Below, piece after piece: positions 45,276-63,244 of a stretch of DNA of 64,000 bases. The stretch lies in contig JBAYJK010000003.1 in the NCBI GenBank assembly GCA_041665145.1, positions 69,177-133,176 of the forward strand, read 5' to 3'. Position numbers and translations under genes: made by a program. Under the pieces are notes generated by a model. That model ran no database searches, had not been told where the DNA came from, and saw only the letters and a program-made list of their open reading frames with translations. How positions within the stretch are numbered: the stretch's first letter is position 1; every line of letters begins with the position of its first letter. This DNA comes from Patescibacteria group bacterium. GTDB taxonomy: Bacteria; Patescibacteriota; Microgenomatia; UBA1406.

Positions 45276-45328
45276 ATTGTTGTGTCGTTATAACTCTTTC
45301 TACAAGACCAGTGCTGGGTTTTGCTGAT
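45276..45328 (+). repeat. Family-4 repeat, copy G
   Basis: GTCGTTATAActctttcTACAaGACcAGTGCTGGGTTTTGcTGAT. Confidence 0.8.
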
Positions 45329-45330
45329 AA

Positions 45331-45351
45331 AGTTGGAAAATTTTACCAACT
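45331..45351. terminator. hairpin AGTTGG-aaaatttta-CCAACT between convergent genes
   Basis: A 6-bp stem with an A/T loop, abutting the stop of the 45353 gene. Confidence 0.45.
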
Positions 45352-46288: not shown

Positions 46289-46930
46289 CTATTTAAGATA
46301 TCCTATTTTGTAAGCAAATATTGTTCCTAATACACCTAACGCAGCACTTACTGTAGCTGTTACTAAATTAACGATAATCTGGTCTCCATTTCTCTTAAGA
46401 AAACCCTTCACGTCGTGCCTTTTTGACAAAACTATTTCACTGTGTTTAAACAATCTAATATAAAACACCCAAACCGTCCAGGCTAAGAACAGACAATAGA
46501 AATATAAAACAATCTGAGATATTACTCCATGTAATAATAGCCTGAAGACGAAAAAGCCAATATATCCGACCCATAAAGTGTAATCAGAGTATAGAAAACT
46601 TGGCTTTCGAGTGGTTGTCAAAATTATTCTGTCTAATTTGTAGAACAATCCTGCCCCAAGGTTATTATTTGATCCTACGTATAATCTGGTCCATAATTTA
46701 TGCAGCTCTAAAGTCACGTACGGAGAACTTGAAGAAATTTTAAGATCAGTAATTGACTCATTTTCGTACTTCTTACATAGCTCTTTTACATTTGAGAATT
46801 CCAAACTCTTAGACACAATCTTATATCCGCTTTTTTCGACCAACAATAATTCCTCTATGGCCTCAAGTTGATCTACAAAGACTCTTATTGGTGAATATTT
46901 TCTTAGAAGTGGCTCATTAATTCTTTTCAT
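46289..46930 (-). CDS. hypothetical membrane protein (soluble N-domain + 3-4 TM)
   Basis: 213 aa. It overlaps the upstream gene by ATGA (46927-46930). Confidence 0.6.
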   Translation of the reverse strand: MKRINEPLLRKYSPIRVFVDQLEAIEELLLVEKSGYKIVSKSLEFSNVKELCKKYENESITDLKISSSSPYVTLELHKLWTRLYVGSNNNLGAGLFYKLDRIILTTTRKPSFLYSDYTLWVGYIGFFVFRLLLHGVISQIVLYFYCLFLAWTVWVFYIRLFKHSEIVLSKRHDVKGFLKRNGDQIIVNLVTATVSAALGVLGTIFAYKIGYLK

Positions 46931-47460
46931 TTTTCTTGGCTTACTTTCGTGCCATCAGAAAAAATTGCCTCTAACTTAGTAAAAACATCTGTTGGGTGCT
47001 GATCTTTTTGATCAAAAGAAAGCCTTTTTATTTCTGGTTCAACAAAAATTTGCGTTTTCTCTTTTTTCCCTTTTTCACCAGCATAGACGACAAGACGCAA
47101 ACCAGTTTTTGATTCCATGAGTCTTGAAACAACAAAAAACCTATTGTCTTTCGAAGATACTTTGCTTTCAGCAATAGGAGTTGCTTCGTTATCAATATTA
47201 ATAAAATGCATTGTTTTATAGGTCCTAGAGTTTATCTCCTTTAAGATAAATTGTTTCTCATAGTATACAAATCTAGGAATGGAATATATTTTATTACATT
47301 TCTCACATTGCAACTTCTTACTTGTATATTCGTTATCCGTATAATCGTCTAAATGTAGGTCTAATTCAATATAGTCCCTTGGACACAAGGGAACAGCTCT
47401 CGCGGGGCGCTGCCCTATGATCCACCTTACCCCATCGACAATAAAACCTACTTTTAACAT
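46927..47460 (-). CDS. hypothetical protein with a Zn-ribbon-like CPxx...CxxC
   Basis: 177 aa with LCPRDY...CEKCNK. It is translationally coupled to 46289-46930. Confidence 0.6.
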   Translation of the reverse strand: MLKVGFIVDGVRWIIGQRPARAVPLCPRDYIELDLHLDDYTDNEYTSKKLQCEKCNKIYSIPRFVYYEKQFILKEINSRTYKTMHFINIDNEATPIAESKVSSKDNRFFVVSRLMESKTGLRLVVYAGEKGKKEKTQIFVEPEIKRLSFDQKDQHPTDVFTKLEAIFSDGTKVSQEK

Positions 47461-47461
47461 T

Positions 47462-47513
47462 GTGCTGGGAGTAACGGATGTGGACCTGAAAGGCCTTATA
47501 ACGGTGTCTCACC
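47462..47513 (+). repeat. Family-1 junction repeat, copy I (island boundary)
   Basis: GTGCTGGGAGTAACGGATGTGGACCtGaAaGGCCTTATAacGGTGTCTCAcc. Confidence 0.85.
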
Positions 47514-47561
47514 TTTGAGGCTAAATGGGACATTTGGTACAGTATAAAAAGAAACAACTCA

Positions 47562-47578
47562 TCTTCATAAAATCTTAA
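47562..47578 (+). promoter_or_regulatory. Direct repeat TCTTCA-N5-TCTTAA (island RR box 1)
   Basis: 11-bp phasing, 12 nt upstream of TAGTAT (47591-47596), which is 6 nt from the ATG at 47603. Confidence 0.55.
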
Positions 47579-47602
47579 TTCATGTGGTTGTAGTATTTGA
47601 CT

Positions 47603-47863
47603 ATGTTTTATAAGAAAGAGATAGTTAAACAGCTAAACCTTTCTCAGCATACTGTTACAGATGTTATCAATGAACTTCCATCCGATTACGACTGGAAATT
47701 TCTCTGTCAGAAGATTGAGCTTGCGATAGTTAAACTTAACCGAGCTTCAGAACTGCTACGAATATACCATCTCGAGGTTTGTACCCTGAATAAACAAGAT
47801 AGAACAAAAACCACTTTAGGTTCTCAGACTATCAGTGAAGTTATGAAAGCATATAAATTTTAG
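47603..47863 (+). CDS. small protein with a possible HTH (86 aa)
   Basis: KQLNLSQHTVTDVI looks HTH-like. The ATG at 47603 is preferred over the TTG at 47597. Confidence 0.45.
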   Translation: MFYKKEIVKQLNLSQHTVTDVINELPSDYDWKFLCQKIELAIVKLNRASELLRIYHLEVCTLNKQDRTKTTLGSQTISEVMKAYKF

Positions 47864-47876
47864 CAAGAAGATAAAT

Positions 47877-48371
47877 ATGAGCTCAAAAGTTATAATTACT
47901 CTTTGCGTTTTCTTCGGCGTAATGCTCGGACTTGTTTTCTTTATAACAACTGGTCAAAAGCCGGATCTGGCGTCTATTGTATATTCCGCTCAAGATACTA
48001 ATCGGCCCAAAGTTGAGGCAAATAGCGTATTCAAAAACCTTGGGGAAATCAGCGTGTCCGATGTGAAAAAGCAGGACTTTTCTTTCAAAAATACAGGCAC
48101 CAAGCCTCTTCAGATTCTCGGAATTAGTTCGAGCTGCGGCTGTACAACAGGTCAGCTAATTTACAAAGGTACAACTACAAAACCATACAGTATGCATGCC
48201 CAAAGCGGATTCATTACTAACATAGCGCCAGGTGAAAGTGCCATAGTTCGCCTCGTATACCGCCCCGCGACTATGCCTGTGTACGGTCTCGTTGAGCGCG
48301 AAGTGTATGTAACGACAAACGATCCTCTTAATCAGAAATTGGTGTTTAGCATTAAAGCAAAGGTGAGGTAA
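47877..48371 (+). CDS. DUF1573-domain protein, membrane-anchored
   Basis: N-terminal TM, FKNTGTKPLQI and SSSCGCTTG. Confidence 0.75.
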   Translation: MSSKVIITLCVFFGVMLGLVFFITTGQKPDLASIVYSAQDTNRPKVEANSVFKNLGEISVSDVKKQDFSFKNTGTKPLQILGISSSCGCTTGQLIYKGTTTKPYSMHAQSGFITNIAPGESAIVRLVYRPATMPVYGLVEREVYVTTNDPLNQKLVFSIKAKVR

Positions 48372-48373
48372 AA

Positions 48374-49201
48374 ATGGATTCAAACTTTTTATTTGGCGTC
48401 TCATTGACAGCATCATTTCTCGCGGGAGTACTGGCACTATTTGCCCCGTGTTGTATAACATTTCTGTTCCCTTCATATCTTGGAACAATCTTCAAGGACG
48501 GCAAAAAGGTTATGTATTATACGTTTATCTTTGCGTTCGGCCTGGCCTTCGTCCTAGTTCCGATAGCACTTGGAATTAGGGCTGCTATATTCTTTCTCGA
48601 CACATACCATACACAAGTTTACTATCTCGGTGCGTTGGTTATGATTCTGATGGGTTTTTTAACACTTAAACCCGTACTCCATCTACCTCAGATATTTCAT
48701 GTCTCTAGCCCCCATGGAAAAAAAATTAACACAGGAACGGTTTTTGGATTAGGTCTTATGTCTGGACTAACTTCTGCCTGTTGCGCTCCAGTACTCTTTG
48801 CCGCTGTTACACTTACATCGCTGTCCCCCTCACTTTTACAGGCTTTTATCGTCTCAGCAGCATATATTGTCGGTATCGTCATGCCTTTGTTTATCATGTC
48901 AATGTTTTACGAAAAGGCAACTTCTCGGGTAACAGGAGCAAACAGACAGAAAATTTATCGGATTTTGAAGTTTGCGGGAGCCGCTTTATTTTTTCTTGCA
49001 GGTATACTGATAGCTTTATTCAATTTTTTTGGAAAAATACAGATGAACCAGATGGAACCATACAGCCAAAAAATTAGACTTATTTTTTTTGAAATTTCGA
49101 AATACTTCCAGAATCCGATAATCGACCTGGTAGTTTTTGGGATAGTTCTGCTTGCTTTTTACAAGTTACTACGTTATAAAGGCCATGAAAAAGAAGAATA
49201 A
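48374..49201 (+). CDS. DsbD/CcdA-family (DsbD_2) membrane thiol-disulfide transporter-like protein
   Basis: 6 TM, with LFAPCC in TM1 and TSACCAPV in TM4. Confidence 0.7.
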   Translation: MDSNFLFGVSLTASFLAGVLALFAPCCITFLFPSYLGTIFKDGKKVMYYTFIFAFGLAFVLVPIALGIRAAIFFLDTYHTQVYYLGALVMILMGFLTLKPVLHLPQIFHVSSPHGKKINTGTVFGLGLMSGLTSACCAPVLFAAVTLTSLSPSLLQAFIVSAAYIVGIVMPLFIMSMFYEKATSRVTGANRQKIYRILKFAGAALFFLAGILIALFNFFGKIQMNQMEPYSQKIRLIFFEISKYFQNPIIDLVVFGIVLLAFYKLLRYKGHEKEE

Positions 49202-50123
49202 TCTTTTGCCGGTAGTTATGGTTAGTGTTACTTTTAACGCGATTTTGGCTGCCATACTCATTACTCCCCGCGTCATAAGTTTAAAATCGACCCTTTTTAA
49301 ACCACAGGTATCTCCATCGACAAAAACTGTGGTAACCACCAAAAACAACTTGTTTGATCAAATTAACCCGGTTGCGGGGTATGAAATAAATGCATTGTAT
49401 AGAGATCTTGGCCCGAAACTTATAGCTTCGGGGGCAATAGATCGAGAGAAATTTCAAAGCACATATGAAAGATCTAGCCAACCGATGACAACAGAACAGA
49501 AACAAATTTTATTTAAAGGATCGAGCAAAAGAATAAAAGTAACCAGGGAAAACTCGTACTTTCTTCTTAATTTTTTCTGGGCTGTAGGGCTTGCCAATAA
49601 ATCTAAAATTCTCGACGAAGGAGATATGGTGAAATATGGCGGTAAAAGTGGTGCGGGCAATTTTGCCTCTACCGGAGGGTGGAGTTTGGCAAAAAGTGAG
49701 GCAATGAATTACTATTCAAAGTCGGAACTTATTTCGTTGACTGCAGAACAAGAAGCTCTCGTCGCTCTGGTAGCATCAAATATTTTCAGGCCTTGTTGTG
49801 ACAACTCAACGGCATTCCCGGACTGCAACCATGGGATGGCTTTATTGGGAGTCCTGCAACTTATGGCAGCAAACGGTGCAACTGAAAAAGACATGTATGA
49901 AGCGTCGAAATACTTCAACGCTTTTTGGTTCCCGGGAAACTATTATGATCTTGCATTATATTTTCAAAACAAGGAGGGAAAATCATTTAAAGATGTAGAT
50001 GCAAAGATCTTATTAAGTAAAGATTTCTCATCTGCAACTGCATCTCAAAATATTAAGCAATGGCTTGCTAATAAAGGATTAGTCCAGCAACCACCGAAAC
50101 AAGGTGGCGGATGCGGAGTATAA
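49185..50123 (+). CDS. membrane-anchored hypothetical protein with a PCCDNSTAFPDCNHG motif and a C-terminal GGGCGV
   Basis: 313 aa with an N-terminal TM. The start is at MKKKNN (49185), overlapping the previous gene by 17 nt. Confidence 0.6.
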   Translation: MKKKNNLLPVVMVSVTFNAILAAILITPRVISLKSTLFKPQVSPSTKTVVTTKNNLFDQINPVAGYEINALYRDLGPKLIASGAIDREKFQSTYERSSQPMTTEQKQILFKGSSKRIKVTRENSYFLLNFFWAVGLANKSKILDEGDMVKYGGKSGAGNFASTGGWSLAKSEAMNYYSKSELISLTAEQEALVALVASNIFRPCCDNSTAFPDCNHGMALLGVLQLMAANGATEKDMYEASKYFNAFWFPGNYYDLALYFQNKEGKSFKDVDAKILLSKDFSSATASQNIKQWLANKGLVQQPPKQGGGCGV

Positions 50124-50130
50124 TGCTCTT

Positions 50131-50799
50131 ATGAGGATTCTGATCGTCGAGGATGAACAAAGACTTTCTAATATTGTTCGAAAAGGATTCATTGAGGATG
50201 GTTTTGCTGTAGACCAAGCATTCGACGGTGAAGAGGGACAATACCTTGCTGAAAGTGAAGAGTATGATCTTATTGTGTTGGATATTGCATTACCTAAAGT
50301 CGATGGACTAACTCTCTGTAAAGAACTTCGTAATAAACAAATAAGAACCCCCGTTCTAATTTTAACCGCAAAGTCGAAAACGGAAGATAAAATAGCAGGG
50401 CTTGACTCAGGAGCTGACGACTATATGACAAAACCATTTTCTTTTGCTGAATTTCGCTCCCGTGTACACGCTCTTATCAGAAGAAGCCATCAAAATTCAT
50501 CCCCTGTTTTGGAAATTGAAGGTCTGGAGGTTGATCCATTGAAGCATATTGTGAAGAGAGACAGCAGGACAATAAGTTTGACTCCAAAGGAGTTTGCAAT
50601 TTTAGAGCTATTGATGAGGCATAAGGGTGAAGTGGTAAGCAGAACTATGATTACAGAGCATGTCTGGGATTATAATTTCGAGGGAATGAGTAACGTTGTT
50701 GATGTTTTCGTTACCACATTACGAAAGAAAATTAATCGGGGGTCAAAACACAAGCTCATACAAACGATTCATGGAGTCGGTTATAAGGTTGGAAGCTAA
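50131..50799 (+). CDS. OmpR-family response regulator (CopR/CusR-like by context)
   Basis: MRILIVEDE, LDIALPKVDG, TAK, HGVGYK. TATAAT 50119-50124 lies 6 nt upstream of the ATG. Confidence 0.9.
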   Translation: MRILIVEDEQRLSNIVRKGFIEDGFAVDQAFDGEEGQYLAESEEYDLIVLDIALPKVDGLTLCKELRNKQIRTPVLILTAKSKTEDKIAGLDSGADDYMTKPFSFAEFRSRVHALIRRSHQNSSPVLEIEGLEVDPLKHIVKRDSRTISLTPKEFAILELLMRHKGEVVSRTMITEHVWDYNFEGMSNVVDVFVTTLRKKINRGSKHKLIQTIHGVGYKVGS

Positions 50800-50800
50800 T

Positions 50801-52204
50801 ATGAATACCAAAAGCATACGATTCCGCATAATCTTCTGGTTCAGTCTGGCAATGTTTCTTGCGGCTGCATTTATTTTTTCCAGTTTTTATCTGGTAACAA
50901 CAAGGATACTTTTCAAACAAGTAGATAGCGAACTTTTGACACACGCGACTAAGTTATCACAGATCGTGACACGACAGGGTGTTAGTCTGCATGAGGTATT
51001 ATTGCAACAACAATTATTCACCGAATTCAGCAATATTCCGGGTATGGTTGTAGCCTTACTGGATGAAAATGGTATTGCTGTTAGCAGCTCGCTAAGTATG
51101 GATAGGCCATACGTTTCATATAACTATCTTTTCCAGCTAGCTCGGGGTTCCGCAAAACCAGTCTACTTAAACCAGGAAATTAGCAATGTACCTATGAGAT
51201 TCATTGCCCAGCCAATCAGAAGCGGATCGGATCTTGTAGGTATTGTACTCGTTGCACACCCTATTGATGCTATCCAGAAGTCTCTCAATACTCTTCTTAC
51301 GACCCTCGCGATACTGCTGGGGCTGCTCGTAATTCCAACGGTTCTCGGCGGATTAGTCCTCGCCGGAAAAATCATGCAACCCATATCTCATATAACCAAT
51401 AAAATTGACAAGATAAGTTCCGAACATCTTGAAGAGAGGGTGGATACATCCCGAACAGGGGATGAAATGGAAAAGCTTGGGGTTACCTTTAACAGTCTTC
51501 TAGATCGTCTTCAGGATTCGTTTCAACGGGAACGACAGTTCATCGGTGATGTTGCACATGAATTGAAGACCCCGGTTGCAACTCTTAAGAGCGGAATTGA
51601 ACTCGCGCTTTTAAAAAACAGGACAAACGATGAATACAGACAATTCTTCAAGGAAACTCTTATTGATGTCAATAGATTATCTACAACAATCAAAAATATT
51701 CTTGATCTTGCTTGGCTCGGGGCGGAGAGCTCACAAATTTCTGAGAACAGTTTTAATTTGTCGGTAACGCTTACCGAATTAAGCGAGATTGCAACAAAAC
51801 TAGCAGCTCAAAAACGTATAAGCATAAGAAACAATATTAGGCAAAATATATTTGTTATTGGAGTAGAAGACAAAATAACCAGAGCAATACTCAACATTAT
51901 TGATAACGCGATCAAATACACTCCAGTGGATAAAACTGTCAGTATTACTTTGCACAAAAGAGGCGGTAGCGCTATCCTTGAAATAACTGATACCGGTATC
52001 GGTATTTCGGAAAAAGAGATAGATCATATCTTCGAACGTTTTTATCGTGGCGCAAAAACTGCAAAAACATTAGGCTCAGGTCTCGGACTTGCCATTGCGC
52101 AGGGTATTATAAAAGCCCATCGCGGTGAAATTGATGTGACTAGTAAAGTCGGCAAAGGAACCACAGTTTCTATTACCTTGCCTATCAAAGGCATTCTATC
52201 ATAA
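50801..52204 (+). CDS. sensor histidine kinase (CopS/CusS-like by context)
   Basis: Two TM segments flanking a periplasmic-type domain, HAMP, H-box AHELKTPV, DNAIKYT, DTGIGI and GSGLGLAI. Confidence 0.9.
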   Translation: MNTKSIRFRIIFWFSLAMFLAAAFIFSSFYLVTTRILFKQVDSELLTHATKLSQIVTRQGVSLHEVLLQQQLFTEFSNIPGMVVALLDENGIAVSSSLSMDRPYVSYNYLFQLARGSAKPVYLNQEISNVPMRFIAQPIRSGSDLVGIVLVAHPIDAIQKSLNTLLTTLAILLGLLVIPTVLGGLVLAGKIMQPISHITNKIDKISSEHLEERVDTSRTGDEMEKLGVTFNSLLDRLQDSFQRERQFIGDVAHELKTPVATLKSGIELALLKNRTNDEYRQFFKETLIDVNRLSTTIKNILDLAWLGAESSQISENSFNLSVTLTELSEIATKLAAQKRISIRNNIRQNIFVIGVEDKITRAILNIIDNAIKYTPVDKTVSITLHKRGGSAILEITDTGIGISEKEIDHIFERFYRGAKTAKTLGSGLGLAIAQGIIKAHRGEIDVTSKVGKGTTVSITLPIKGILS

Positions 52205-52207
52205 CCA

Positions 52208-52224
52208 TCTTCACACTTTCCTAA
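52208..52224 (+). promoter_or_regulatory. Direct repeat TCTTCA-N5-TCCTAA (island RR box 3)
   Basis: Same phasing as box 1, 12 nt upstream of TATAGT (52237-52242). Confidence 0.5.
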
Positions 52225-52274
52225 TGCTACTCATTATATAGTTCAAATATATATAGCAATTTAATATAATCAAT

Positions 52275-52481
52275 ATGGAGTACCATGAAGCACCAACGTA
52301 CAACAGCAAAACGAGTGCAGTAATAACGTGGTTCCTTGTTTGTCTGTGTGCAGTTGTTGTTGTGGTTGTGGCGGTTACGGTGTTTAAGGTTAAGCTAAAT
52401 AGCTTGTTGTATGTAGGAATTCTTTTACTATGTCCGCTCATACATTTTGTGATGATGAAAAGCGGCAGCCATAAGCATTAA
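52275..52481 (+). CDS. DUF2933-like small membrane protein
   Basis: 68 aa with the C-terminal LLLCPLIHFVMMKSGSHKH pattern seen next to copper ATPases. Confidence 0.5.
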   Translation: MEYHEAPTYNSKTSAVITWFLVCLCAVVVVVVAVTVFKVKLNSLLYVGILLLCPLIHFVMMKSGSHKH

Positions 52482-52521
52482 CTACGACAAAAAATAAACA
52501 CAAAAGTGTTACGATAAAAGC

Positions 52522-54663
52522 ATGAAAATGAATCATGAAACGATGACTCACGATATGCATGATATGCACAGTCAACATGATATGCATTCAATGAAACCTA
52601 TGTCTGAATTGTCCTTCTGGGAAAAGCTAAAGATGAGTATGGCGATGAGTATGGGTATGGAACACACAGGTCTAGCCGGACGTGAGATGGCCAAACTTAT
52701 GGAACTAGACATAAGAAATAAGTTTTTCTTTTCTTTGTTTCTAACACTACCCATTCTTCTCTACTCCATGGGAAATATGATTTTCAAGTTGAATTTACCG
52801 TCCCCTCTTCCCATTCCCTGGCTTCTGTTTGTACTAACAACCCCCGTCTTTTTTTACGGAGGTTGGTTGTTTCTGTATTCCTCATTTCTTGAATTGCGTA
52901 AACGGCAACTTGGTATGTCCGTTCTGATAGCAATTGGTATTACGGCTGCATATGGGTTCAGCGTTGTGTTGACACTAACCGGAAGCGCTGATTCGTACTA
53001 TGAAGCAGCGGCAATGTTGATTACATTTGTACTTTTTGGGCATTGGATGGAAATGAAATCCAGGCGTGGAACCACTGACGCGCTTCAGGCTTTGTTTAAC
53101 CTCGTTCCTCCTCAGGCACGACTCTGGAAAAACAACGTGGAAACGATAGTATCTACTTCTGAAATCAAACTTGGGGATATCCTTGTACTTAAACCTGGAG
53201 ATAAGGTACCTGTTGATGGTGAAATTATTGAGGGAGAAACGGCAATTGATGAGTCGCTTGTTACGGGTGAATCAATCCCAGTTTTAAAGAAAATGGCCGA
53301 TACCGTGATTGGTGGTTCTATCAACACGTCCGGTTCAGTAAAATTTAAGGCTACTAAAGTCGGAAATGATACGGCGCTTGCGCAAATTGTTAAAATGGTC
53401 GAGACCGCCCAAAACTCTAAGGCTCCCGGACAGAAATTGGCTGATACATTTGCAAAATATCTGGTTATTATTGCCGTAGGAGGTGGGTTATTGACATTCT
53501 TTACCTGGTTTTTTGTTTTAGGTCAACCGCTGGTTGTCGCATTGACATTTGCTATTTCCACCATCGTCATCGCGTGCCCAGATGCACTTGGTTTGGCAAC
53601 ACCTACCGCTGTAGCGGTTGGGACTGGTCTTGGTGCAAAGCACAATATCCTTATAAAGGATGCTCCCACACTTGAACAGGTGTCCAAGATTCAGACAGTT
53701 GTTCTCGATAAGACGGGAACGCTTACCGAGGGAAAGCCAAAAGTTACTGATACAGTAGCTGCCTCAGGTTTTTCTCAAAGCGAAGTTCTCAGACTGACCG
53801 CAGCTGCCGAAACGAAGTCTGGTCACCCTCTCAGCAAGGCTATTCTTGAAGAAGTACATAGACTTACATTAAGCATACCTTCGAATATCGACAAATTTAA
53901 TTCCTTATCAGGTCTTGGGGTTGAGGCGTTTGTCGAAAATAGACATGTACTCGTCGGGACTATAAAACTTATGACCGATCGTAAGGTTGATATTTCTCCG
54001 CTTCAGAAAGATATCGACCGATTATTAGTAGAAGGCAAGACACTCATGATTCTAGCAATAGATAGTAAAATTGCGGGTGTGGTAGCTGCTGCTGACACGG
54101 TTAAACCTACTGCAAAAGACGCCATTACCGCAATGAGGCAATTAGGATTGGAGGTGGCTATGATTACTGGAGACAACAGACAAACAGCTGAGGCTGTTGG
54201 TACATTATTGGGCATTGACAGAATATTTTCCGAGGTACTACCGGCAGATAAAGAAACATACGTTAAAAAGCTTCAGGATGAGGGCAGATTCGTAGCAATG
54301 GTTGGTGATGGTGTCAATGATGCTCCGGCGCTTGCACGGGCAGATATAGGCATTGCCATAGGGGCAGGCACAGATGTTGCTATCGAGACAGCCAAGGTTG
54401 TTCTCATGAAATCGGATCCCGGAGATATTCTTCGTGCTATAAAATTATCAAAAGCAACAGTACGTAAAATGAAGGAAAATCTGGTGTGGGCAAGCATTTA
54501 CAACGTTTTAGCGATTCCTATAGCTGCTGGAGTTCTCTATCCGACTTTTGGTATTACGTTACGACCGGAGTTTTCAGCCCTTCTCATGTCAGCCTCTTCA
54601 ATTATTGTAGCAGTTAATGCTGTGTTGCTCAGAAGATCAGAAAAGGATCTAGTAACACTATAA
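52522..54663 (+). CDS. P1B-type heavy-metal ATPase with a His/Met-rich N-terminus and a CPD TM4 motif
   Basis: N-terminal MNHETMTHDMHDMHSQHDMHSM, TGES, IACPDALGLATP, DKTGTLT, GDGVNDAPAL, and TM6 MSASS. Confidence 0.9.
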   Translation: MKMNHETMTHDMHDMHSQHDMHSMKPMSELSFWEKLKMSMAMSMGMEHTGLAGREMAKLMELDIRNKFFFSLFLTLPILLYSMGNMIFKLNLPSPLPIPWLLFVLTTPVFFYGGWLFLYSSFLELRKRQLGMSVLIAIGITAAYGFSVVLTLTGSADSYYEAAAMLITFVLFGHWMEMKSRRGTTDALQALFNLVPPQARLWKNNVETIVSTSEIKLGDILVLKPGDKVPVDGEIIEGETAIDESLVTGESIPVLKKMADTVIGGSINTSGSVKFKATKVGNDTALAQIVKMVETAQNSKAPGQKLADTFAKYLVIIAVGGGLLTFFTWFFVLGQPLVVALTFAISTIVIACPDALGLATPTAVAVGTGLGAKHNILIKDAPTLEQVSKIQTVVLDKTGTLTEGKPKVTDTVAASGFSQSEVLRLTAAAETKSGHPLSKAILEEVHRLTLSIPSNIDKFNSLSGLGVEAFVENRHVLVGTIKLMTDRKVDISPLQKDIDRLLVEGKTLMILAIDSKIAGVVAAADTVKPTAKDAITAMRQLGLEVAMITGDNRQTAEAVGTLLGIDRIFSEVLPADKETYVKKLQDEGRFVAMVGDGVNDAPALARADIGIAIGAGTDVAIETAKVVLMKSDPGDILRAIKLSKATVRKMKENLVWASIYNVLAIPIAAGVLYPTFGITLRPEFSALLMSASSIIVAVNAVLLRRSEKDLVTL

Positions 54664-54689
54664 TTGCTGTCTTCAACGAAACTCTGAAA

Positions 54690-54706
54690 TCTTCATAAAA
54701 TCTTAA
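54690..54706 (+). promoter_or_regulatory. Direct repeat TCTTCA-N5-TCTTAA (island RR box 2)
   Basis: The 17-mer is identical to box 1. It lies 12 nt upstream of TATGCT (54719-54724), which is 7 nt from the ATG at 54732. An extra TCTTCA at 54669-54674 is 21 nt upstream. Confidence 0.55.
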
Positions 54707-54731
54707 CTGCCTGTCTTGTATGCTGTATTTT

Positions 54732-56579
54732 ATGAAAAAATGTAACATCAATATCAAAGGCATGCACTGCCGATCATGTGAATTGTTAATAGAAGACGAA
54801 TTACAAAAGGTACCCGGTATTGAACGGGTTTCAGTAAGCCACCAAACTGGGGTTGCCGAGTTATTCTACCGACACGGATTTAATGAACAGGCAGTTGCAC
54901 ATGCGATACAGAATGCCGGATACAGTATTGGGGTGAATGAAAAACCTCATATTTTTTCTCGGAACCACTGGGATTATGTTGATGTAGGAATTGCTTTCTT
55001 CATGGTAATGACCGTGTTTCTCCTTGCAAAAACATTCGGATTATTCAATTTGGGAAGTTCAATTTCGGGAAGCTACTCAAGCTTACCCATTGTGTTCATT
55101 GTCGGTCTCACCGCGGGAGTATCAACATGTATGGCAATGGTGGGCGGGTTGGTGCTCGGCGCTGCTGCTCGGTTTTCCGCGCAAAATCCAAATGCCAGCG
55201 CTCTCGAGAAATTCAAACCACATCTATTTTTTAATCTTGGAAGAATCACGTCATACACAGTTTTGGGAGGTGTGGTAGGTTTTGCTGGATCTCTGTTTCA
55301 GCTTTCTACTTCAGTTCTGGGAATTTTGACTGTTACAGTGGGGCTTGTCATGTTGCTTCTCGGAGGCCAACTTATCGAGATATTCCCTGTTTTAAAGCGA
55401 ATATCGTTTACTTTACCCAAAGGGATTTCTCGTATACTTGGTATTAAGGAGCAGACTCAGTCTGAATACAGTGACAAAGGTGCTGCAATTATGGGGGCTT
55501 CGACTTTTTTTCTACCCTGTGGTTTCACTCAGGCAATGCAACTATTTGCCATGAGTACCGGCAGTCCCGTAACAGGCGCGTTAACCATGGGTGTTTTCGC
55601 ACTTGGTACGGCGCCTGGATTGCTCAGTGTTGGTGGTCTTACATCCGTAATTAAAGGTGAGGCTGCGAAGATGTTTTTCAAGGTTGCTGGTGTTGTAGTT
55701 GTTCTGCTCGCCCTATTTAATATTTCAAATGGCCTTAACTTACTCGGGATTGGCCCGAACGTTCTTGGAGCTTTCAATACAAAGGCTGCAACGAATACAA
55801 CAGCTACTGATTCAAATGTCACCATCGCTAATGGGGTTCAGGAAGTTCGGATGACGCAAGATTCTTCCGGTTACACGCCTAATAGCTTTACTATCAAAAA
55901 AGGTACTCCAGTGAAATGGATTGTTACTTCAACTGATGTTAATACCTGTGCAAGTAGCATTGTGTCACAGCAGTTAGGTGTGCGCCAAGCACTGCAGTTA
56001 GGTGAGAACATCATAAATTTTACTCCAACAGAAACCGGTACAATCCGCTTTTCATGCATGATGGGAATGTATAATGGATCGTTTAATGTAGTTGATGAGA
56101 CTGAGACGTCGGCTGTTCCTTCTGTACTTGCCGCAGATGCAACGCCAGCGGGGGTGAGTGCGTTACCACTGCCAAGCACTACGACCACCAATGCAAAGTC
56201 ATCATGTGGCGGTTCTGGTGGAGGTGGTTGTGGATGCGGCTCAAAGCGTGCAGTGCCTACTCCAAACCCTAGCCAACCTATCGCAGAAGCCGTTGTTGAG
56301 AATAATGTACAGGTAATTAAGGCCACGTACACAAGTCTCGGCGATATCTCGCCCAACTTTTTTATCGTTAAAGCAAATCAACCGGTACGTTTCGAAGTTG
56401 ACGCGCAGGATAACGGCGAAGGTTGTATGGGCAGCATCACAGTTCCCAACCTGACAAATAAGGTGGATATTCTCACCAAAGGACAAAAGACGATTTTTGA
56501 ATTTACACCCAGTACTCCGGGTAACTACAATATCACTTGCGGGATGGGAATTCCGAGAGGCCAAATACAAGTTATTTAG
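54732..56579 (+). CDS. HMA domain + TauE/SafE-like membrane domain + two cupredoxin-like domains
   Basis: N-terminal GMHCRSCE, 6-8 TM (FFLPCGFTQAMQLFA), a Cys/Gly linker SSCGGSGGGGCGCGS, and two beta domains ending FSCMMGMYNG and ITCGMGIPRG. Confidence 0.75.
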   Translation: MKKCNINIKGMHCRSCELLIEDELQKVPGIERVSVSHQTGVAELFYRHGFNEQAVAHAIQNAGYSIGVNEKPHIFSRNHWDYVDVGIAFFMVMTVFLLAKTFGLFNLGSSISGSYSSLPIVFIVGLTAGVSTCMAMVGGLVLGAAARFSAQNPNASALEKFKPHLFFNLGRITSYTVLGGVVGFAGSLFQLSTSVLGILTVTVGLVMLLLGGQLIEIFPVLKRISFTLPKGISRILGIKEQTQSEYSDKGAAIMGASTFFLPCGFTQAMQLFAMSTGSPVTGALTMGVFALGTAPGLLSVGGLTSVIKGEAAKMFFKVAGVVVVLLALFNISNGLNLLGIGPNVLGAFNTKAATNTTATDSNVTIANGVQEVRMTQDSSGYTPNSFTIKKGTPVKWIVTSTDVNTCASSIVSQQLGVRQALQLGENIINFTPTETGTIRFSCMMGMYNGSFNVVDETETSAVPSVLAADATPAGVSALPLPSTTTTNAKSSCGGSGGGGCGCGSKRAVPTPNPSQPIAEAVVENNVQVIKATYTSLGDISPNFFIVKANQPVRFEVDAQDNGEGCMGSITVPNLTNKVDILTKGQKTIFEFTPSTPGNYNITCGMGIPRGQIQVI

Positions 56580-56593
56580 TTATTAACAAAACT

Positions 56594-56797
56594 ATGCAAT
56601 CAATGAAACTAACCGGACTTACTTGCAACGCTTGCAAGAAAGTCTCAGAAAAAAGGATCGGAGCAATAAGCGGAGTTCAAAAAGTTGATGTTTCCGTTGA
56701 ATTGGGTGTAGCAGTCATAGATTCCGATAGGCTACTATCAGTATTAGAAGTTAACAAAGTGCTTCAAGACACACCTTATAAAGCACTCGAGAAATAG
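56594..56797 (+). CDS. small HMA-like metallochaperone (CopZ-like)
   Basis: 67 aa with [12 protein letters not shown]. The start is taken at MQSMKL. Confidence 0.65.
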
Positions 56798-56798
56798 T

Positions 56799-59700
56799 AT
56801 GAATAGAATAATTGATCTTAAAATTGAAGGAATGCATTGTCAGTCGTGCGAAATGTTAATCAAAGATGAGCTGTCTTCCCTTTCGGGTGTCAAAGACGTT
56901 AGTACTGACTATAAAACTGGCCGCGGAACAGTCACTTTAACCAATCGGGTTACTTCAGACGCGGCAATTCTTGACTCTGTAAAAAATGCAGGGTATGTGG
57001 CTTCTGTAATTACTTCCAATCATCTGAGTAACAACGTATCACAATTGCCACAAGAAAAGGGAACATTTGCTTTTTTGAATTTCCCAAAGGAAATAGGTCT
57101 TGAAGGAACAATCGGCAAGAATGCAGAAGGACAGGTGACCATTAAAGGTAAGTTACGATTTAATTCTAACGAAAGCGATGAACCTCACCAACTCGCTCAG
57201 CCGAATAACGTTGTCGAAAATAATACTTTTGCTGGTAAAACGGAACGAACTAGTTTGGTCATTATAGGAATGCATTGTTCCTCTTGTGCCGCAATTATTG
57301 AGAGACAGTTAAAAAAGGTGACTGGTGTATCAGAAGCAAAAGTTAATTTCGCTTCTGAAAAAGCATCTGTAGTTTACAATTCGGGCGTAACAAAGACAGA
57401 AGATTTAATAAAAGCAGTTGAAAAATCTGGATACAAAGCTGCTCCCGCTCATACTGAAGACTCACAAGCTCAAGCAAAACGCCAAACATCAGAAATAAAG
57501 CATCAATGGAACAGATTCATTATCAGCATGGTGTTGTCGTCCCCAATGATTTATTTCATGTTTCTTGATTTCTTTAATTTTCTACCGGGAACCAAGCTCA
57601 TACTTCCCTACATTGGAATCATATCGTTTGTATTAGCAACACCCGTACAATTCATCATTGGCTCCAACTTTTACAAAGGAATGATTTCCGCCTTAAAGAT
57701 GCGTACGTTTAACATGGATAGTTTAATAGCTATAGGGACATCCGTTGCCTATTTCTATAGCGCTGCTAACTTTATCCAATACTTTATAACCAACAATTCC
57801 TTAATTGGCCTTGCAGGAGCCAAAATTCCAGATTTGTACTTTGAAACTGCAGCATTCCTTATTACGTTTGTTATTCTAGGAAAATTCCTTGAAGCAAAAG
57901 CCAAAGGAAGGACATCTGAAGCGATTAAGAAACTCATGGGTTTGCAGGCAAAAACAGCACGAGTTATACGAAACGGAGAGACAGTTGATATTCCTGTTGA
58001 CCAGGTTATCAAAAACGATATTATCATGGTTCGACCCGGAGAAAAAGTCCCCGTAGATGGAACGATTACGAAAGGCTCCTCTTCTATCGACGAATCAATG
58101 ATAACCGGTGAGAGTCTTCCTGTTGAAAAACATGTTGAGGACACAGTTATCGGCGGCACAATAAATAAAGTCGGTAGCTTTGAGTTTATGGCAACACGAG
58201 TGGGGTCTGAAACTACGCTCGCCCAAATTATCCGCCTCGTTGAAGACGCACAGGGTTCTAAGGCACCCATTCAAGCTGTTGCCGATAAGATTTCTGCATA
58301 CTTTGTTCCGGGTGTAATAGCACTTGCCGTTTTGACATTTGTTGTCTGGTTTTTCTTTTTAGGGTCAACGCTTTCTTTCGCTCTAATGGCATTTACGGCA
58401 GTTATTGTTATTGCCTGTCCTTGTGCTCTGGGCCTTGCCACCCCGACAGCCATAATGGTTGGAACGGGAGTTGGGGCTGAACATGGCATCTTAATCAAAG
58501 GTGGCGAACCATTGGAAAGTGCAAGTAAAATAAATACGATTGTTTTCGACAAAACAGGAACTATCACAAAAGGAAAGCCCGAAGTAACTGATGTTGAAGA
58601 TGTTGGTTCGCTTGACGATAAAGAAGTGCTTGCTATTTCTGCAAGTCTTGAAAAGCAATCCGAACACCCCCTTGCTGAAGCAATATATTCTTACTCTCAA
58701 GAGGAAGGTGTGACTCTTAAAGAAGTTGAGAAGTTTAGTGCAATTCCAGGCCATGGCGTCAAAGGGACTATTGGAAACAAAGATTACTTTTTCGGAAATC
58801 GCAAGCTTATTACCGAAACGCTTGGTTTGGATATCGGTAAGTTTGAACGGAAGCTCGTACGACTCGAAGAACAGGGAAAAACAGCAATGATCCTATCTTC
58901 AAAAGACGAAGTGCTTGGACTGATTGCTGTTGCTGATACGATAAAAACCACTTCGAGAGAAGCTATTGAAAAACTCAAGAAGATGAAGATTGAAGTATGG
59001 ATGATCACAGGGGACAATACCCGTACGGCTAAGGCAATTGCTGCACAAGTCGGTATTGACAATGTCCTCGCCGAAGTCTTGCCTCAAGATAAGGCCAACG
59101 AAGTAAAAAAACTTCAGGAACAAGGTAAAAAAGTAGCGATGGTAGGAGACGGTATTAATGACGCACCGGCACTTGCACAAGCTGAACTTGGAATTGCAAT
59201 GGGTTCGGGAACTGATGTTGCCATGGAAGCCGGAGGAATCGTCATCATTAAGAATGATCTCAGAGATGTAGTTAATGCACTCGATCTTTCCAAGAGCGCC
59301 GTGCAAAAAATACAACAAAACATGTTCTTTGCTTTGTTCTATAACGTTATCGGCATTCCAATCGCTGCGCGTGTATTTATGTTCGCGGGCCTTGTGTTAA
59401 AGCCGGAACTTGCTGGTCTTGCGATGGCACTTAGTTCAGTTTCTGTAGTAAGCAACTCACTGCTTCTTCGGCGCTACCGTCCGGGAAAAAAGAACTATAT
59501 ATCTATGTTTGCACCGATTGTTATGATGATCGCTTTTACGTTACTGTTTATCGAATTTGCACGGTTTAGTTCCACTATGGCTGCACCAAAGAAGATGGAT
59601 TCGAAAGTAACCAATTCTCGTGCAGTTAGTAATGTGGTAGAAATAAGCGCTCCCACTGGAGTTAAAAAACAGTTCTATATGGTAGGAAACAGTATTCCTA

Positions 59701-59948
59701 CAGAGTTATCAGGTCAGATACAAATGGAGGCATTCAATCCGGTATATATTGCAGGAAAGAAGTATAGTCCGATTTTTATAGGGTATGACGAGGCTCAGGT
59801 TATGATTGAGGAAAAACTATTTTCTAAACCGGGTGATACTATTAAGAACTTTTTTGGTAATGACATTATTGTCTCAGGCGTCTTAGTAAAGACTAATTCA
59901 GTTTTTGATACGTATCATTTTGTCAAGGAAGGGTTCCAATTAAGGTGA
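56799..59948 (+). CDS. copA: Cu+-type P1B ATPase with two N-terminal HMA domains and a ~150 aa C-terminal extension
   Basis: GMHCQSCE and [57 protein letters not shown], then an extra TM plus a soluble domain (59499-59945). Confidence 0.9.
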
Positions 59949-59978
59949 ATGAAATAAGTCTGCTATGAGGCCGATGTG

Positions 59979-60049
59979 CTGGGGGACGTGGATTCGGACC
60001 ACGATAAACAGCTCCAAAGGCTGCTGTCCTACCATTAGACGATCCCCCA
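59979..60049 (-). tRNA. tRNA-Gln (anticodon UUG), no encoded CCA
   Basis: The manual cloverleaf is TGGGGGA/TCCCCCA acceptor stem, GTCT/GGAC D stem, GCAGC-CTTTGGA-GCTGT anticodon arm, and CGTGG-TCCGAAT-CCACG T arm, with discriminator G. The 5' TGGGG.ATCG start resembles the bacterial tRNA-Gln I remember. Confidence 0.85.
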
Positions 60050-62474: not shown

Positions 62475-62527
62475 ATAATGAGAATTTCTTTTCATGGTAT
62501 TTGCCCAGAGTAAAATTTCACAGCTTC

Positions 62528-62574
62528 ATCAACAAAACCCAGCACTAGTCCTGTAAAACGAATTATAACGACTC
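62528..62574 (-). repeat. Family-4 repeat, copy M (inverted)
   Basis: The reverse complement reads GTCGTTATAAttcgtttTACAgGACtAGTGCTGGGTTTTGtTGAT. Confidence 0.8.
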
Positions 62575-62600
62575 TGAATAATGTTGTGATATAATAGTTT

Positions 62601-63242
62601 ATGTTTTTAGAGCACTGGAAAAGGCTTTTTGCTGGCGACAGAGATAAGACTCATTTAACGAACGGAGGACTTGACTTGCGTGACGCTGAGCTTTTGGATG
62701 TTGCTGAATCGCGCGTTTTTAGAAAAGGTGGGTCTGTTTTAAAAATTTATGACACTCCTCTTTCAAGGGGAATAATTACTCGCTCCACGCTACAACTATA
62801 CAAAAGGCTCACCGGACAAGTCTCACAAGAACTAACCCAAAGATCTGATGAGTGGTCGTTTTCAGGGCAATGTATTTCTATACACTGGAACGTGGTGGAA
62901 ATAGACAATTTAGGAGAATTGCCTGGAACCGGAGATGCATGGTCTATGAGTAAATACGTGCCGGGAATTAATCTGAGAGATATGTATTACCCGCAGTGGG
63001 CTCGACGACAAGTTATACAACAAGCTGTCCTGAAAGGTCGCGAGGAGCAGATGAGAGGTTTATTGGACCGGGTATCGCTCGAAGTAAATGCACGGCTGAA
63101 TACAGATTTAACAGACATAGATCTTACCAATGTCATCGTAGATGCTTCAAATACAGGCTTATTATTCAATGTAACCGATGTCTGTGGAATAGTTTCAAAG
63201 GTTGATGGTGGTTATGCAAGAGTTCCATTGATGTTTGAGTAA
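62601..63242 (+). CDS. hypothetical protein, possibly an atypical kinase-like fold
   Basis: 213 aa. The pair DIDLTNVIVD ... FNVTDVCG weakly resembles a kinase catalytic loop and DFG. Confidence 0.4.
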   Translation: MFLEHWKRLFAGDRDKTHLTNGGLDLRDAELLDVAESRVFRKGGSVLKIYDTPLSRGIITRSTLQLYKRLTGQVSQELTQRSDEWSFSGQCISIHWNVVEIDNLGELPGTGDAWSMSKYVPGINLRDMYYPQWARRQVIQQAVLKGREEQMRGLLDRVSLEVNARLNTDLTDIDLTNVIVDASNTGLLFNVTDVCGIVSKVDGGYARVPLMFE

Positions 63243-63244
63243 TG

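Follow-up and report, generated by a model that had tools for sequence, protein, structure and literature searches.

A putative copper-type heavy-metal resistance cluster at the 3' end of tRNA-Gln(UUG) in an uncultivated bacterium of the Microgenomates group

An uncultivated ultra-small CPR bacterium of the Microgenomates group carries a 12.4-kb copper/heavy-metal resistance cluster directly after a tRNA-Gln gene. In the window, by which we mean the whole 64,000-nucleotide stretch of DNA that was analysed, positions 47563-59948 are a self-contained cluster of the copper type, its putative function being read from protein families. The cluster was probably acquired horizontally, and it is most likely accessory DNA in an accessory hot spot at the tRNA-Gln(UUG) 3' end, having entered by insertion or recombination there. 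Taken as a whole, the explanation that we hold, with moderate confidence, is that of an exchanged metal cluster at a tRNA-Gln hot spot, in which the sequence at 47462, described in an earlier note as a decayed copy of the tRNA end, is a member of a local repeat family (F1) and resembles the tRNA probably by coincidence.

Gene content and predicted regulation of the cluster

Eleven metal-related genes had been described between the tRNA and its supposed copy, and their descriptions hold when checked by Pfam and by motifs from the translation (Table 1); the CPD and CPC motifs of the two P1B ATPases can be read directly off it. Only a weak hit against the membrane domain of DipZ underlies the label "DsbD-like". 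This protein is 72% identical to its counterpart in the related locus L047 and 67% in L046, and the CPD-type ATPase is 75-81% identical to those of relatives. BLASTP found no match between the 86-aa ORF and the 88-aa ORF that has the equivalent position in L047. The ORF of the CPC ATPase opens at 56799 and its called start is 56832. The metal and redox theme that these genes share is real in the interval but extends beyond it, as Nramp, ZnuABC, a P2 ATPase, DipZ/thioredoxin and ArsR/ArsP are found at 0.2-40 kb, outside the cluster.

The left limit of the cluster falls within the 47461-47602 spacer, and its functional left end can be placed at 47563 because a conserved 15-nt regulator box, CTTCATAAAATCTTAA, starts there. 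On the right, the stop codon of the CPC ATPase lies 29 nt from the 3' end of tRNA-Gln, which points to the cluster. Two exact copies of the box are present in the window against 0.13 expected, and the identical 15-mer is found upstream of orthologous genes in L001, L004, L047 (twice) and L048; by conservation alone, we take it to be the probable operator for the response regulator that the cluster encodes.

The protein families suggest how the cluster might work. The histidine kinase would sense metal and phosphorylate the OmpR-type regulator, which would act at the box before two operons. The first would comprise the 86-aa ORF, the DUF1573 protein, the DsbD-like protein, the Cys-motif protein, the regulator and the kinase, and the second the HMA-DsbD_2-cupredoxin protein, the HMA chaperone and the CopA-like CPC ATPase; the CPD-type ATPase, with its His/Met-rich N-terminus, would have a leaderless promoter of its own. 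The products may export and sequester metal and keep envelope thiols reduced. Our analysis supports this interval as a coherent, self-regulated metal-resistance unit.

Table 1. Features of the cluster, the tRNA and the repeats in the window.
Feature	Position	Strand	Remarks
F3 promoter-type repeat	42618..42663	-	CAACYnGGATTCGGACTAGTGATATAAT, then 6-8 nt, then ATG
Other F3 copies	37353-37395(-), 40676-40718(-), 46119-46162(-), 60084-60124(+), 61318-61359(+)
F1 copy A	43366..43418	-	upstream of alpha/beta-hydrolase gene 42669-43343
F1 copy B	44495..44544	-	upstream of RhuM-Fic
F2 left copy	45276..45351	-	contains GTGCTGGG
Chance decoy	46323..46347	-	18/25 to terminal tRNA 25-mer; inside coding region of 213-aa gene
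F1 copy C (supposed decayed tRNA end)	47456..47508	-	abuts ATG of 177-aa gene 46927-47460
Box CTTCATAAAATCTTAA, copy 1	47563..47578	+	before 86-aa ORF
86-aa ORF	47603..47863	+	no family; first gene past box copy 1
DUF1573 protein	47877..48371	+	Pfam E = 1.5e-14; L047 orthologue 62% identical
DsbD-like multi-pass membrane protein	48374..49201	+	25% identity to DipZ membrane domain, E = 4e-5
Cys-motif protein	49185..50123	+	without Pfam family; 67% identical to L046, 54% to L047
OmpR-type response regulator	50131..50799	+	Pfam Response_reg + Trans_reg_C; 75-79% identity to relatives
Histidine kinase	50801..52204	+	HAMP, HisKA, HATPase_c (Pfam); start is called gene start
68-aa membrane peptide	52275..52481	+	DUF2933 match sub-threshold (E = 0.014)
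P1B-type ATPase, CPD motif	52522..54663	+	His/Met-rich N-terminus; Pfam E1-E2_ATPase, Hydrolase
Box CTTCATAAAATCTTAA, copy 2	54691..54706	+	upstream of HMA-DsbD_2-cupredoxin operon
HMA-DsbD_2-cupredoxin membrane protein	54720..56579	+	Pfam
HMA metallochaperone	56603..56797	+	64 aa as called; Pfam HMA
CopA-like P1B ATPase, CPC motif	56832..59948	+	two HMA domains; Pfam; 1038 aa as called
tRNA-Gln(UUG)	59978..60049	-	ARAGORN; Rfam RF00005 59979-60049, 58.6 bits
F2 right copy	62508..62600	+	inverted relative to left copy
F1 copy D	63240..63290	+	beyond tRNA, upstream of Exo_endo_phos gene

The cluster in related genomes

Proteins of the cluster are 54-81% identical across several genomic contexts in relatives. 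L046 has the same cluster, in the same gene order and orientation, against its own tRNA-Gln(UUG), whose sequence is different. In L047 the cluster is elsewhere, adjoining Lon, in L001 and L048 its genes are within larger metal regions, and in L003 and L004 its right half lies in ICE-like DNA that continues into a T4SS, defence genes and a serine recombinase. Relatives hold the cluster or its right half in such differing contexts, which shows that it is exchanged among Microgenomates. Close homologues are lacking for the accessory genes that flank the cluster; for GrpB, the best match from beyond this species reaches 47%. The adjacency to tRNA-Gln common to this genome and L046 could reflect vertical inheritance and not repeated insertion.

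A comparable arrangement is found in L044 (Levybacteria, GCA_035329765.1), where a 6.2-kb copper island is bounded on one side by tRNA-Gln(CUG) and on the other by an exact 18-nt repeat of the 3' end of this tRNA. As in the window, a cluster of P1B ATPase, HMA and DsbD_2-cupredoxin genes is transcribed towards tRNA-Gln, an HTH-117aa-Trx-DipZ module follows beyond it (window 34567-37350) and an integrase is absent. Unlike the window, L044 has a perfect 18/18 repeat and an adjacent GIY-YIG pseudogene, and in the window 10 kb of additional cassettes separate the cluster from the DipZ module. L045 has different DNA at the tRNA-Gln spot used in L044. Direct repeats of 18-23 nt are present at tRNA-Gln in L044, L014 and L015, with no integrases there.

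The supposed tRNA copy and the repeat families

The tRNA-Gln(UUG) on the minus strand is confirmed, as ARAGORN and Rfam agree within 1 nt. Both strings quoted in the earlier note (47462-47486 and 59976-60000) are present in the sequence, and their ungapped match is indeed 18/25, or 19/26 with one base more, including the 9-mer TGTGCTGGG, which covers the tRNA end plus flank (3 nt by the ARAGORN end, 4 by that of Rfam). The attL/attR geometry built upon them is not supported, since the copy at 47462 belongs to the F1 repeat and its tRNA likeness is too weak to prove an insertion scar. The octamer on which the match was centred also occurs at 45311 (+) and 62538 (-), within the F2 repeat family, and among the F1 copies it is intact solely in that at 47462.

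Whether the 18/25 match exceeds chance is borderline. Matches of at least 18/25 to some tRNA window occur at six independent loci; on the other hand, only 0.5-0.8% of shuffled or random 80-mers reach 18/25 against the F1 family, and when 142-nt tiles are ranked by local similarity to the tRNA region, the boundary spacer comes within the top 0.8-2.5%. The empirical p for the tRNA likeness is about 0.005-0.025 (0.005-0.008 against the F1 family) before post-hoc correction. No copies of the tRNA 3' 18, 22 or 26 nt were found with up to 4, 6 or 8 mismatches, respectively. Among 49 tRNAs compared with F1, the 3' ends of CPR tRNA-Gln(UUG) scored highest as a group, with 17-18/25 vs 14-17.

F1 is a local 40-50-nt intergenic repeat in four copies. 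Those at 43370 and 44503, already seen in the earlier note, are genuine members, but their reading as older tandem insertions leaves unexplained the inverted copy D beyond the tRNA and the F2 and F3 repeats that mirror gene orientation. Copy D, inverted relative to A-C, is 89% complementary to copy C over 37 nt. Because the conserved columns of F1 (CTATAAG, GG.TC, CGTTACT) differ from those matching the tRNA, a decayed tRNA end is not demonstrable at 47462; the family also continues for about 25 nt further, without tRNA likeness. No RNA structure was found in F1. The 73 kb of this genome and the loci of the relatives contain no further copies, and scanning genome, metagenome and viral collections for its pattern gave no match. 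The genes downstream of the copies are not paralogous to each other. F1 is most likely duplicated upstream or promoter-proximal DNA, and the rule that it is co-oriented with the following gene is informative in only two of the four copies. Copy C is in direct orientation exactly in the cluster-bounding spacer, the place in which one would expect an attR remnant.

As a rule, genes in this genome have a TATAAT box 6-7 nt ahead of the ATG, and F3 is a leaderless promoter of this kind. On either side of the tRNA, all three families precede accessory genes that are unrelated, tracking gene orientation, and they are limited to the 37-64 kb zone. The reported absence of an integrase was borne out, with none among the Pfam-scanned window genes and none called out to 73 kb; a GIY-YIG gene or remnant is likewise lacking within 73 kb. 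No integration scar is demonstrable, because there is no recombinase, GIY-YIG gene or convincing direct repeat.

The cluster lies within a 28-kb compositionally atypical zone found on both sides of the tRNA. The k-mer comparison that had been proposed set the cluster apart from the core, less strongly than its surroundings: its tetranucleotide distance to the core is 0.20-0.22, where core windows give 0.12-0.17 and the two flanks 0.24-0.35.

Alternative explanations

A tentative alternative, possible and yet rather doubtful, is that the cluster is the newest of serial islands at the tRNA-Gln 3' end, with F1 copy C as the decayed distal att repeat or, in a variant, a half-site that stems from attP and is fused to the short overlap CCCAGCAC. 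Older insertions would be marked by copies B and A, and the integrase would have been lost or act in trans. True tRNA-Gln 3'-end repeats without an integrase in L044, L014 and L015 speak for such a history, as does the same cluster at its own tRNA-Gln in L046; however, the true repeats of relatives are 87-100% identical against 72% for the match at 47462. The 19/26 identity takes in tRNA end and flank, and the nominal p of the likeness is 0.005-0.025. A decoy that equals the 18/25 score is found in coding sequence 1.1 kb off, and no part of F1 is less conserved than the octamer that matches the tRNA. Copy C does lie in direct orientation at the exact cluster boundary; against this, copy D is inverted and upstream of the tRNA, and the F1 copies share derived states not present in the tRNA as well as the 25-nt extension unrelated to it. 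Moreover, in the presumed host flank the 177-aa gene would have its ATG 1 nt past the repeat, too close for a promoter to fit in between, and no integrase or GIY-YIG remnant remains within 73 kb. Serial insertion of this kind would predict a repeat of GAATCCAAGCCCCGCAGC at the distal end of the cluster in L046.

It is unlikely that the cluster and tRNA-Gln are an old vertical arrangement shared with the L046 lineage, with no insertion in the present lineage and with AT-rich single-gene flank cassettes arriving later and bringing F1-F3. L046 matches in gene order, orientation and tRNA-Gln adjacency, but its cluster proteins are 62-75% identical to those studied here, vs just 51-52% for the housekeeping Ddl compared with L046 and L021, and L046 and L021 both have a tRNA-Val/Phe/Gly/Gln array that is missing here. 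The composition of the cluster is nearer to the core than that of the flanks, which are alike (r = 0.958) and have repeats in common; nevertheless, every cluster window is outside the core tetranucleotide-distance range. The cluster is also non-syntenic in L047 and L001, and in L003 and L004 it is in ICE-like DNA.

Very improbable is an unrecognised cassette-capture or shuffling system at tRNA-Gln with F1-F3 as recombination sites and the metal cluster as the largest promoter-bearing cassette: related 40-90-nt elements do part short units whose genes are unrelated (1.1 kb, 2.9 kb and 12.5 kb) on both flanks, and the repeats are restricted to the 37-64 kb zone, but a nearby recombinase, attC-like palindromes and conserved secondary structure are absent, cassette orientations are mixed, the leaderless promoter role fully explains F3 and the arrangement is identical in 4/4 samples.

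Comparison with known systems

Typical tRNA-associated genomic islands bear an integrase and are inserted at tRNA 3' ends. The exchanged cluster that we favor is like them in that accessory cargo of atypical composition abuts a tRNA 3' end and recurs in other contexts of related genomes; unlike them, the window is without integrase, excisionase or a convincing direct repeat, and its atypical zone reaches the upstream side of the tRNA too. Genomic islands have been reported in Patescibacteria (PMC12455944).

In its predicted functions the cluster resembles CopA/CopZ with a CopRS-/CusRS-type system, having a CPC P1B ATPase with N-terminal HMA domains, an HMA chaperone, an OmpR-family regulator with its kinase and a repeated upstream box. 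Beyond these, it has further CPR-specific partners, namely the HMA-DsbD_2-cupredoxin fusion, DUF1573, the Cys-motif protein and the CPD-motif ATPase. The ICE-like T4SS elements of L003 and L004 share orthologous HMA-DsbD_2-cupredoxin, HMA and ATPase genes (62-77% identical), but they also have TrbC-like pilins, a VirB4-like ATPase, an M23 peptidase and Thoeris or CBASS-like genes, and L004 a large serine recombinase and TraG, none of which is in the window.

The near-identical F1 and F3 copies preceding non-homologous genes, and the -10 box of F3, recall putative mobile promoters (Matus-Garcia et al. 2012, PMC3488235), unlike which the window copies are packed in a single 27-kb zone, the promoter role of F1 being putative. 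Short unrelated units, mostly of a single gene and parted by related short elements, are also seen in integron cassette arrays; the window differs in having no attC-type imperfect palindromes or IntI, mixed orientations and a separate promoter for each gene.

A metal cluster at tRNA-Gln is an ordinary type of feature in an unusual lineage. The loci of relatives support the view that tRNA-Gln 3' ends are genuine insertion points in CPR bacteria.

The metal-resistance cluster and its candidate regulon

The eleven genes between about 47563 and 59948 form a genuine and coherent metal-resistance cluster, which was probably acquired horizontally. The metal-related content that the earlier note had read from the sequence was recovered with Pfam, namely a DUF1573 protein, an OmpR-type regulator, a HAMP/HisKA kinase, two P1B ATPases, an HMA-DsbD_2-cupredoxin protein and an HMA chaperone. 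The two pumps have the E1-E2 ATPase and HAD domains of the P1B class (Pfam E-values of 5e-54 and 9e-60), with HMA occurring twice in the 1049-aa protein, and the CPC and CPD motifs and the His/Met-rich N-terminus can be read directly from the translation. The window is part of a Patescibacteria (CPR) genome of the Microgenomates group. The nearest named homologues of the large ATPase are from Gottesman-, Woese- and Daviesbacteria. The metal theme is not confined to this interval, since Nramp, ZnuABC, a P2 ATPase, DipZ/thioredoxin and ArsR/ArsP are also encoded to its left.

The window has exactly two occurrences of a 16-nt box, CTTCATAAAATCTTAA, where 0.13 are expected by chance, and a box of 15-16 nt, (C)TTCATAAAATCTTAA, stands ahead of the orthologous metal-cluster operons of other genomes (Table). 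A regulator/kinase pair accompanied by a repeated candidate cis element before target operons is the organization of an OmpR-family regulon, and judging from sequence the box is a candidate operator at which the OmpR-type regulator of the cluster would act. As the box at 47563 marks the functional left end, copy C of the repeat family F1, described below, lies outside the cluster, where it abuts the ATG of a 177-aa gene (46927-47460).

Positions of the features discussed, in the window unless a locus of another genome (L number) is named
Feature	Position	Strand	Context
tRNA-Gln(UUG)	59978/9-60049	minus	sole tRNA (ARAGORN, Rfam)
Box CTTCATAAAATCTTAA	47563-47578		upstream of 86-aa ORF
Box CTTCATAAAATCTTAA	54691-54706		upstream of HMA-DsbD_2-cupredoxin gene
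Box (C)TTCATAAAATCTTAA	L001:7935; L004:7875; L047:3092 and 7792; L048:7926		ahead of orthologous metal-cluster operons
F1 copy A	43366-43418	minus
F1 copy B	44495-44544	minus
F1 copy C	47456-47508	minus	holds the match at 47462
F1 copy D	63240-63290	plus	far side of tRNA-Gln
F2 repeat	45276-45351		inverted partner at 62508-62600
Example -10 sites	2240-2254; upstream of 8162-9133; 12596-12610; 27529-27542; 37351-37365
RhuM-Fic fusion	43440-44417	minus
DipZ module	34567-37350	minus	L044:8735-11728; L045:8764-11728
Tandem 8-nt units	3831-3886		directly after glutamine synthetase gene
24-nt inverted repeats	10670-10693; 10868-10891		AT-rich surroundings
L047			DUF1573-to-ATPase gene set kept, second ATPase upstream; beside DUF6798/Lon; no tRNA
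L001, L048			right half of cluster within larger metal regions
L003	4944-14746		module, then TrbC-like pilins, VirB4-like ATPase, M23 peptidase, Thoeris genes
L004	13360-23120		module, then TrbC-like pilins, VirB4-like ATPase, M23 peptidase, SMODS/CBASS-like genes, large serine recombinase, TraG-like gene
L046			via one small DUF1653 gene, cluster ends at 3' end of own tRNA-Gln(UUG); relative orientation as in window
L044 tRNA-Gln(CUG)	2343-2414
L044 tRNA 3'-end repeat	8579-8596		perfect, 18 nt
Repeats with GIY-YIG genes or pseudogenes	L014:1461-1912; L015:3662-5421; L044:2343-8596
L044 inverted T-arm copy	2460-2472		13 nt; 46 nt downstream of L044 tRNA

Composition of the surrounding DNA

Tetranucleotide distances were taken to the 1-36 kb core, the windows of which range from 0.12 to 0.17. 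In this comparison, of the kind suggested in the earlier note, the cluster is atypical and distinct in composition (0.20-0.22). The flanks on both sides of the tRNA (38-48 kb and 60-64 kb) deviate even further, with distances of 0.24-0.35. The two flanks are alike in composition (r = 0.958), and core-level values are regained near 64-66 kb. This deviation on both sides indicates an accessory zone of about 28 kb (~37-65 kb) straddling the tRNA, rather than core DNA interrupted by a single block of 12.5 kb.

In a search of the flank genes for defence systems only the RhuM-Fic fusion matched a candidate family, the PADLOC family PDC-S23 (E = 1e-105). Its neighbours are single-gene cassettes for HAD, GNAT, SET, deaminase, PepE and two alpha/beta hydrolases. 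Other repeats of the window are about seven tandem 8-nt units (GTCTGAAT/GTCTAAAT) and two G+C-rich inverted repeats (GGGCCGGGCATGCCCGGCCC...), 174 nt apart and each palindromic.

The tRNA-Gln end and the match at 47462

The tRNA-Gln(UUG) gene lies on the minus strand, as had been noted, and the cluster runs directly to its 3' end, with 29 nt between the ATPase stop codon (59948) and the end of the tRNA (59978). The T-loop (59990-59999) reads TCCGAAT, with C at the usual U55 position (stems read by us). This C variant is found in the tRNA-Gln of many CPR lineages (loci L010-L042); the tRNA-Gln of L044 and L046 has the usual TTCGAAT.

The sequence at 47462-47486 had been taken for a decayed direct copy of this tRNA end. 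Both strings quoted in support are present, and they agree at 18 of 25 positions, or at 19 of 26 with the 9-mer TGTGCTGGG when one base is added. With shuffled tRNAs, or with 80-nt pieces drawn at random from the window, 18/25 against the F1 family was attained in just 0.5-0.8% of trials, and an unbiased local alignment puts the 142-nt spacer at the boundary in the top 0.8-2.5% of tiles for tRNA similarity. The proposed comparison of F1 with tRNA 3' ends, made with the 49 tRNAs of the fetched loci and not with the whole genome, placed the CPR tRNA-Gln(UUG) group highest, at 17-18 against 14-17 for other tRNAs. For the candidate repeat at the distal boundary (47461-47486) the empirical p is 0.005-0.025, with an equal decoy in coding sequence: the terminal 25-mer of the tRNA has two 18/25 matches in 73 kb, F1 copy C and a site at 46323, on the opposite strand within the coding region of a 213-aa gene. 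All 25-nt windows of the tRNA together give six independent 18/25 loci, mostly genic, and no copy of the 3' 18, 22 or 26 nt was found at up to 4, 6 or 8 mismatches, respectively.

The resemblance is borderline against chance. Once post-hoc selection is realistically corrected for, the nominal p-values no longer hold up, yet they are not negligible. A decayed tRNA end cannot be established from a weak match that has a coding decoy and belongs to a local repeat family, and we consider this origin of the 47462 sequence rather doubtful. As had been observed, integrase and excisionase are missing: a Pfam scan of genes in the 64-kb window detected no recombinase domain, and no recombinase was called in the next 9 kb. 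A GIY-YIG remnant was not found in the window either. A Logan contig of the same species (L006, SRR18595301) starts at 60018, 31 nt into the tRNA-Gln; island polymorphism was rejected as its cause, and the break most likely reflects a 5' k-mer common to a second, paralogous tRNA-Gln elsewhere in the genome.

Repeat families and leaderless promoters

The further copies reported at 43370 and 44503 are real, and repeat finding and profile searches join them to the 47462 sequence in a family of 40-55 nt, F1. A fourth copy, absent from the earlier note, lies inverted on the far side of the tRNA and is 89% complementary to the 47462 copy over 37 nt, which conflicts with the proposal that the copies mark older tandem insertions. 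All four have the invariant blocks CTATAAG, GG.TC and CGTTACT, and the part of about 25 nt common to them is without tRNA likeness. The octamer matching the tRNA is intact in copy C alone (CCCAGCCA in D, CCACAGCAC in A and CACAACAA in B), so the columns that define the family differ from the tRNA-like ones. F1 showed no significant RNA fold; it was rejected as a structured RNA (Z-scores of -1.75 to +2, a 4-bp stem as sole consensus, tRNA as the only Rfam match) and, with no attC-type palindrome at the junctions, as attC.

A second family, F2, has two copies, and a third, F3, has six, each with an extended -10 box (TGnTATAAT) 6-8 nt ahead of the start codon of unrelated genes. Throughout the window, first genes as a rule have TATAAT at 6-7 nt before the ATG, and F3 is therefore a leaderless promoter. 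Most first genes of transcription units have such a -10 element at this distance and no Shine-Dalgarno sequence, in core and accessory DNA alike, and these upstream regions suggest that mRNAs of this organism are as a rule leaderless. The repeats and most genes of the left flank point leftwards and those of the right flank rightwards; the repeats thus track gene orientation and not that of the tRNA. The genes downstream of them are not paralogous and encode unrelated proteins. Homologous upstream DNA therefore precedes non-homologous genes (six F3 and four F1 copies), as expected of mobile or reused promoter segments, and the closest phenomenon described is that of promoter segments reused ahead of genes that are not homologous (PMC3488235). 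An integron cassette array does not describe these units, which have no attC palindromes, an unstructured F1, mixed orientations, a -10 of their own for each gene and no IntI.

Profile searches over 73 kb of this genome and roughly 0.5 Mb from the loci of relatives gave no more copies of these repeats. Pattern scans for F1 in genome, metagenome and viral contig collections returned 0 matches, the source genome being evidently absent from those collections. The lone F3 match of a second metagenome scan (L043), for which the pattern covered only the 46119-46162 variant, lies inside coding sequence and was dismissed as chance. The element GGATTCGGAC of F3 was likewise rejected as a tRNA T-arm fragment, as the tRNA has 2 matches of 11 nt in the 73 kb, with about 2.2 expected (our estimate). 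The tRNA-Gln T-arm recurs as a short inverted copy (CCTGGATTCGAAC) in the Levybacterium locus L044. This copy is similar to GGATTCGGAC, the core of the F3 promoters in the window, and each fits the T-loop variant of its own genome; the likeness may be coincidence or common origin.

The cluster and tRNA-Gln in related genomes

Several other Microgenomates genomes encode proteins of the cluster at 54-81% identity, in varied surroundings (Table). The TrbC- and VirB4-like genes of L003 and L004, together with the serine recombinase and TraG-like gene of L004, point to a conjugative-element-like context, and these two loci are ICE-like elements of CPR bacteria with metal resistance and defence as cargo. 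No GIY-YIG or tRNA remnants were found flanking the cluster of L047. In L046 (JBFOMQ010000102.1, GCA_040960215.1) the fetched 10-kb flank stops short of the far end of the cluster. Housekeeping Ddl is only 51% identical to that of L046, which fits horizontal exchange of the cluster without proving it.

The arrangement of the window is 100% identical in all four samples (ERZ27249449 k141_479163, the 918,908-bp JGI contig Ga0376277_0000024 of 3300037810, and two Logan assemblies, SRR18595301 and SRR6484324). Since all contigs are identical, exact-protein look-ups for strain variants showed no empty site among them. No close relative with the flanking genes was found; GrpB, considered as a synteny anchor, has no close homologue, with a best match of 47% outside the species. 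DipZ was rejected as an anchor, because its module is itself mobile and the proteins of this module are 76-87% identical to those of Levybacteria.

Clear insertions at tRNA-Gln are found in relatives. In L044 a 6.2-kb copper island (HMA, DsbD_2-cupredoxin, P1B ATPase, cupredoxin, DUF305, CsoR) lies between the tRNA and a perfect repeat of its 3' end, and L045, from a genome 94% identical, has different DNA at that spot. An 18/18 repeat stands 363 nt downstream of tRNA-Gln in L014, and an imperfect one 1.67 kb downstream in L015 (13 exact nt, ~87% over 23 nt in our own alignment). These repeats span the T-loop GAATCC through the 3' end and, at 87-100% identity, differ from the 18/25 of the window candidate. 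They show that tRNA-Gln 3' ends are real insertion points in CPR genomes, at which real scars are easily seen. Small GIY-YIG genes (PF01541) or pseudogenes accompany all three repeats: the repeat brackets a GIY-YIG gene or, in L044, a GIY-YIG pseudogene and the copper island, and no integrase was found in the bracketed elements of L014, L015 or L044. The bracketed units look like a homing-type element that targets tRNA-Gln. A small GIY-YIG gene beside tRNA-Gln is seen in many CPR genomes, among them also L017, L021, L036, L040 and L041.

After the L044 island comes a module like that of the window (68-aa HTH_3, 117-aa membrane protein, thioredoxin and DipZ), at 85, 87, 57 and 76% identity. It borders variable DNA in the window, L044 and L045, and appears to be either a further module under exchange or a border of the hot spot that has been conserved.

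Origin and meaning of the cluster

The metal-resistance cluster sits at an accessory hot spot linked to tRNA-Gln, and features of this sort are ordinary. A more far-reaching reading is that islands and cassettes accumulate at the tRNA-Gln 3' end of CPR bacteria without a recombinase, with the cluster and the F1-bounded units as older products and F1 as the element-side half of the junction. It draws on the 18-23-nt tRNA-Gln repeats of relatives, which bracket DNA with only a small GIY-YIG gene, or a pseudogene and a copper island; the mechanism would be homing-type or some other. We judge this reading improbable. A short tRNA-end match at the edge of an island is not a scar unless it rises above background and lies outside other repeat families.

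As it stands the result is mainly descriptive: a metal regulon and a candidate operator common to Microgenomates genomes, with evidence that this regulon moves between genomes, including on conjugative-element-like DNA. The interest of the cluster lies mainly in its CPR host and in its relatives, from which the spread of such clusters can be followed. Were the insertion reading true, streamlined, episymbiotic CPR bacteria would gain metal modules at tRNA-Gln without a resident integrase, which would suggest a trans-acting or homing-type mechanism.
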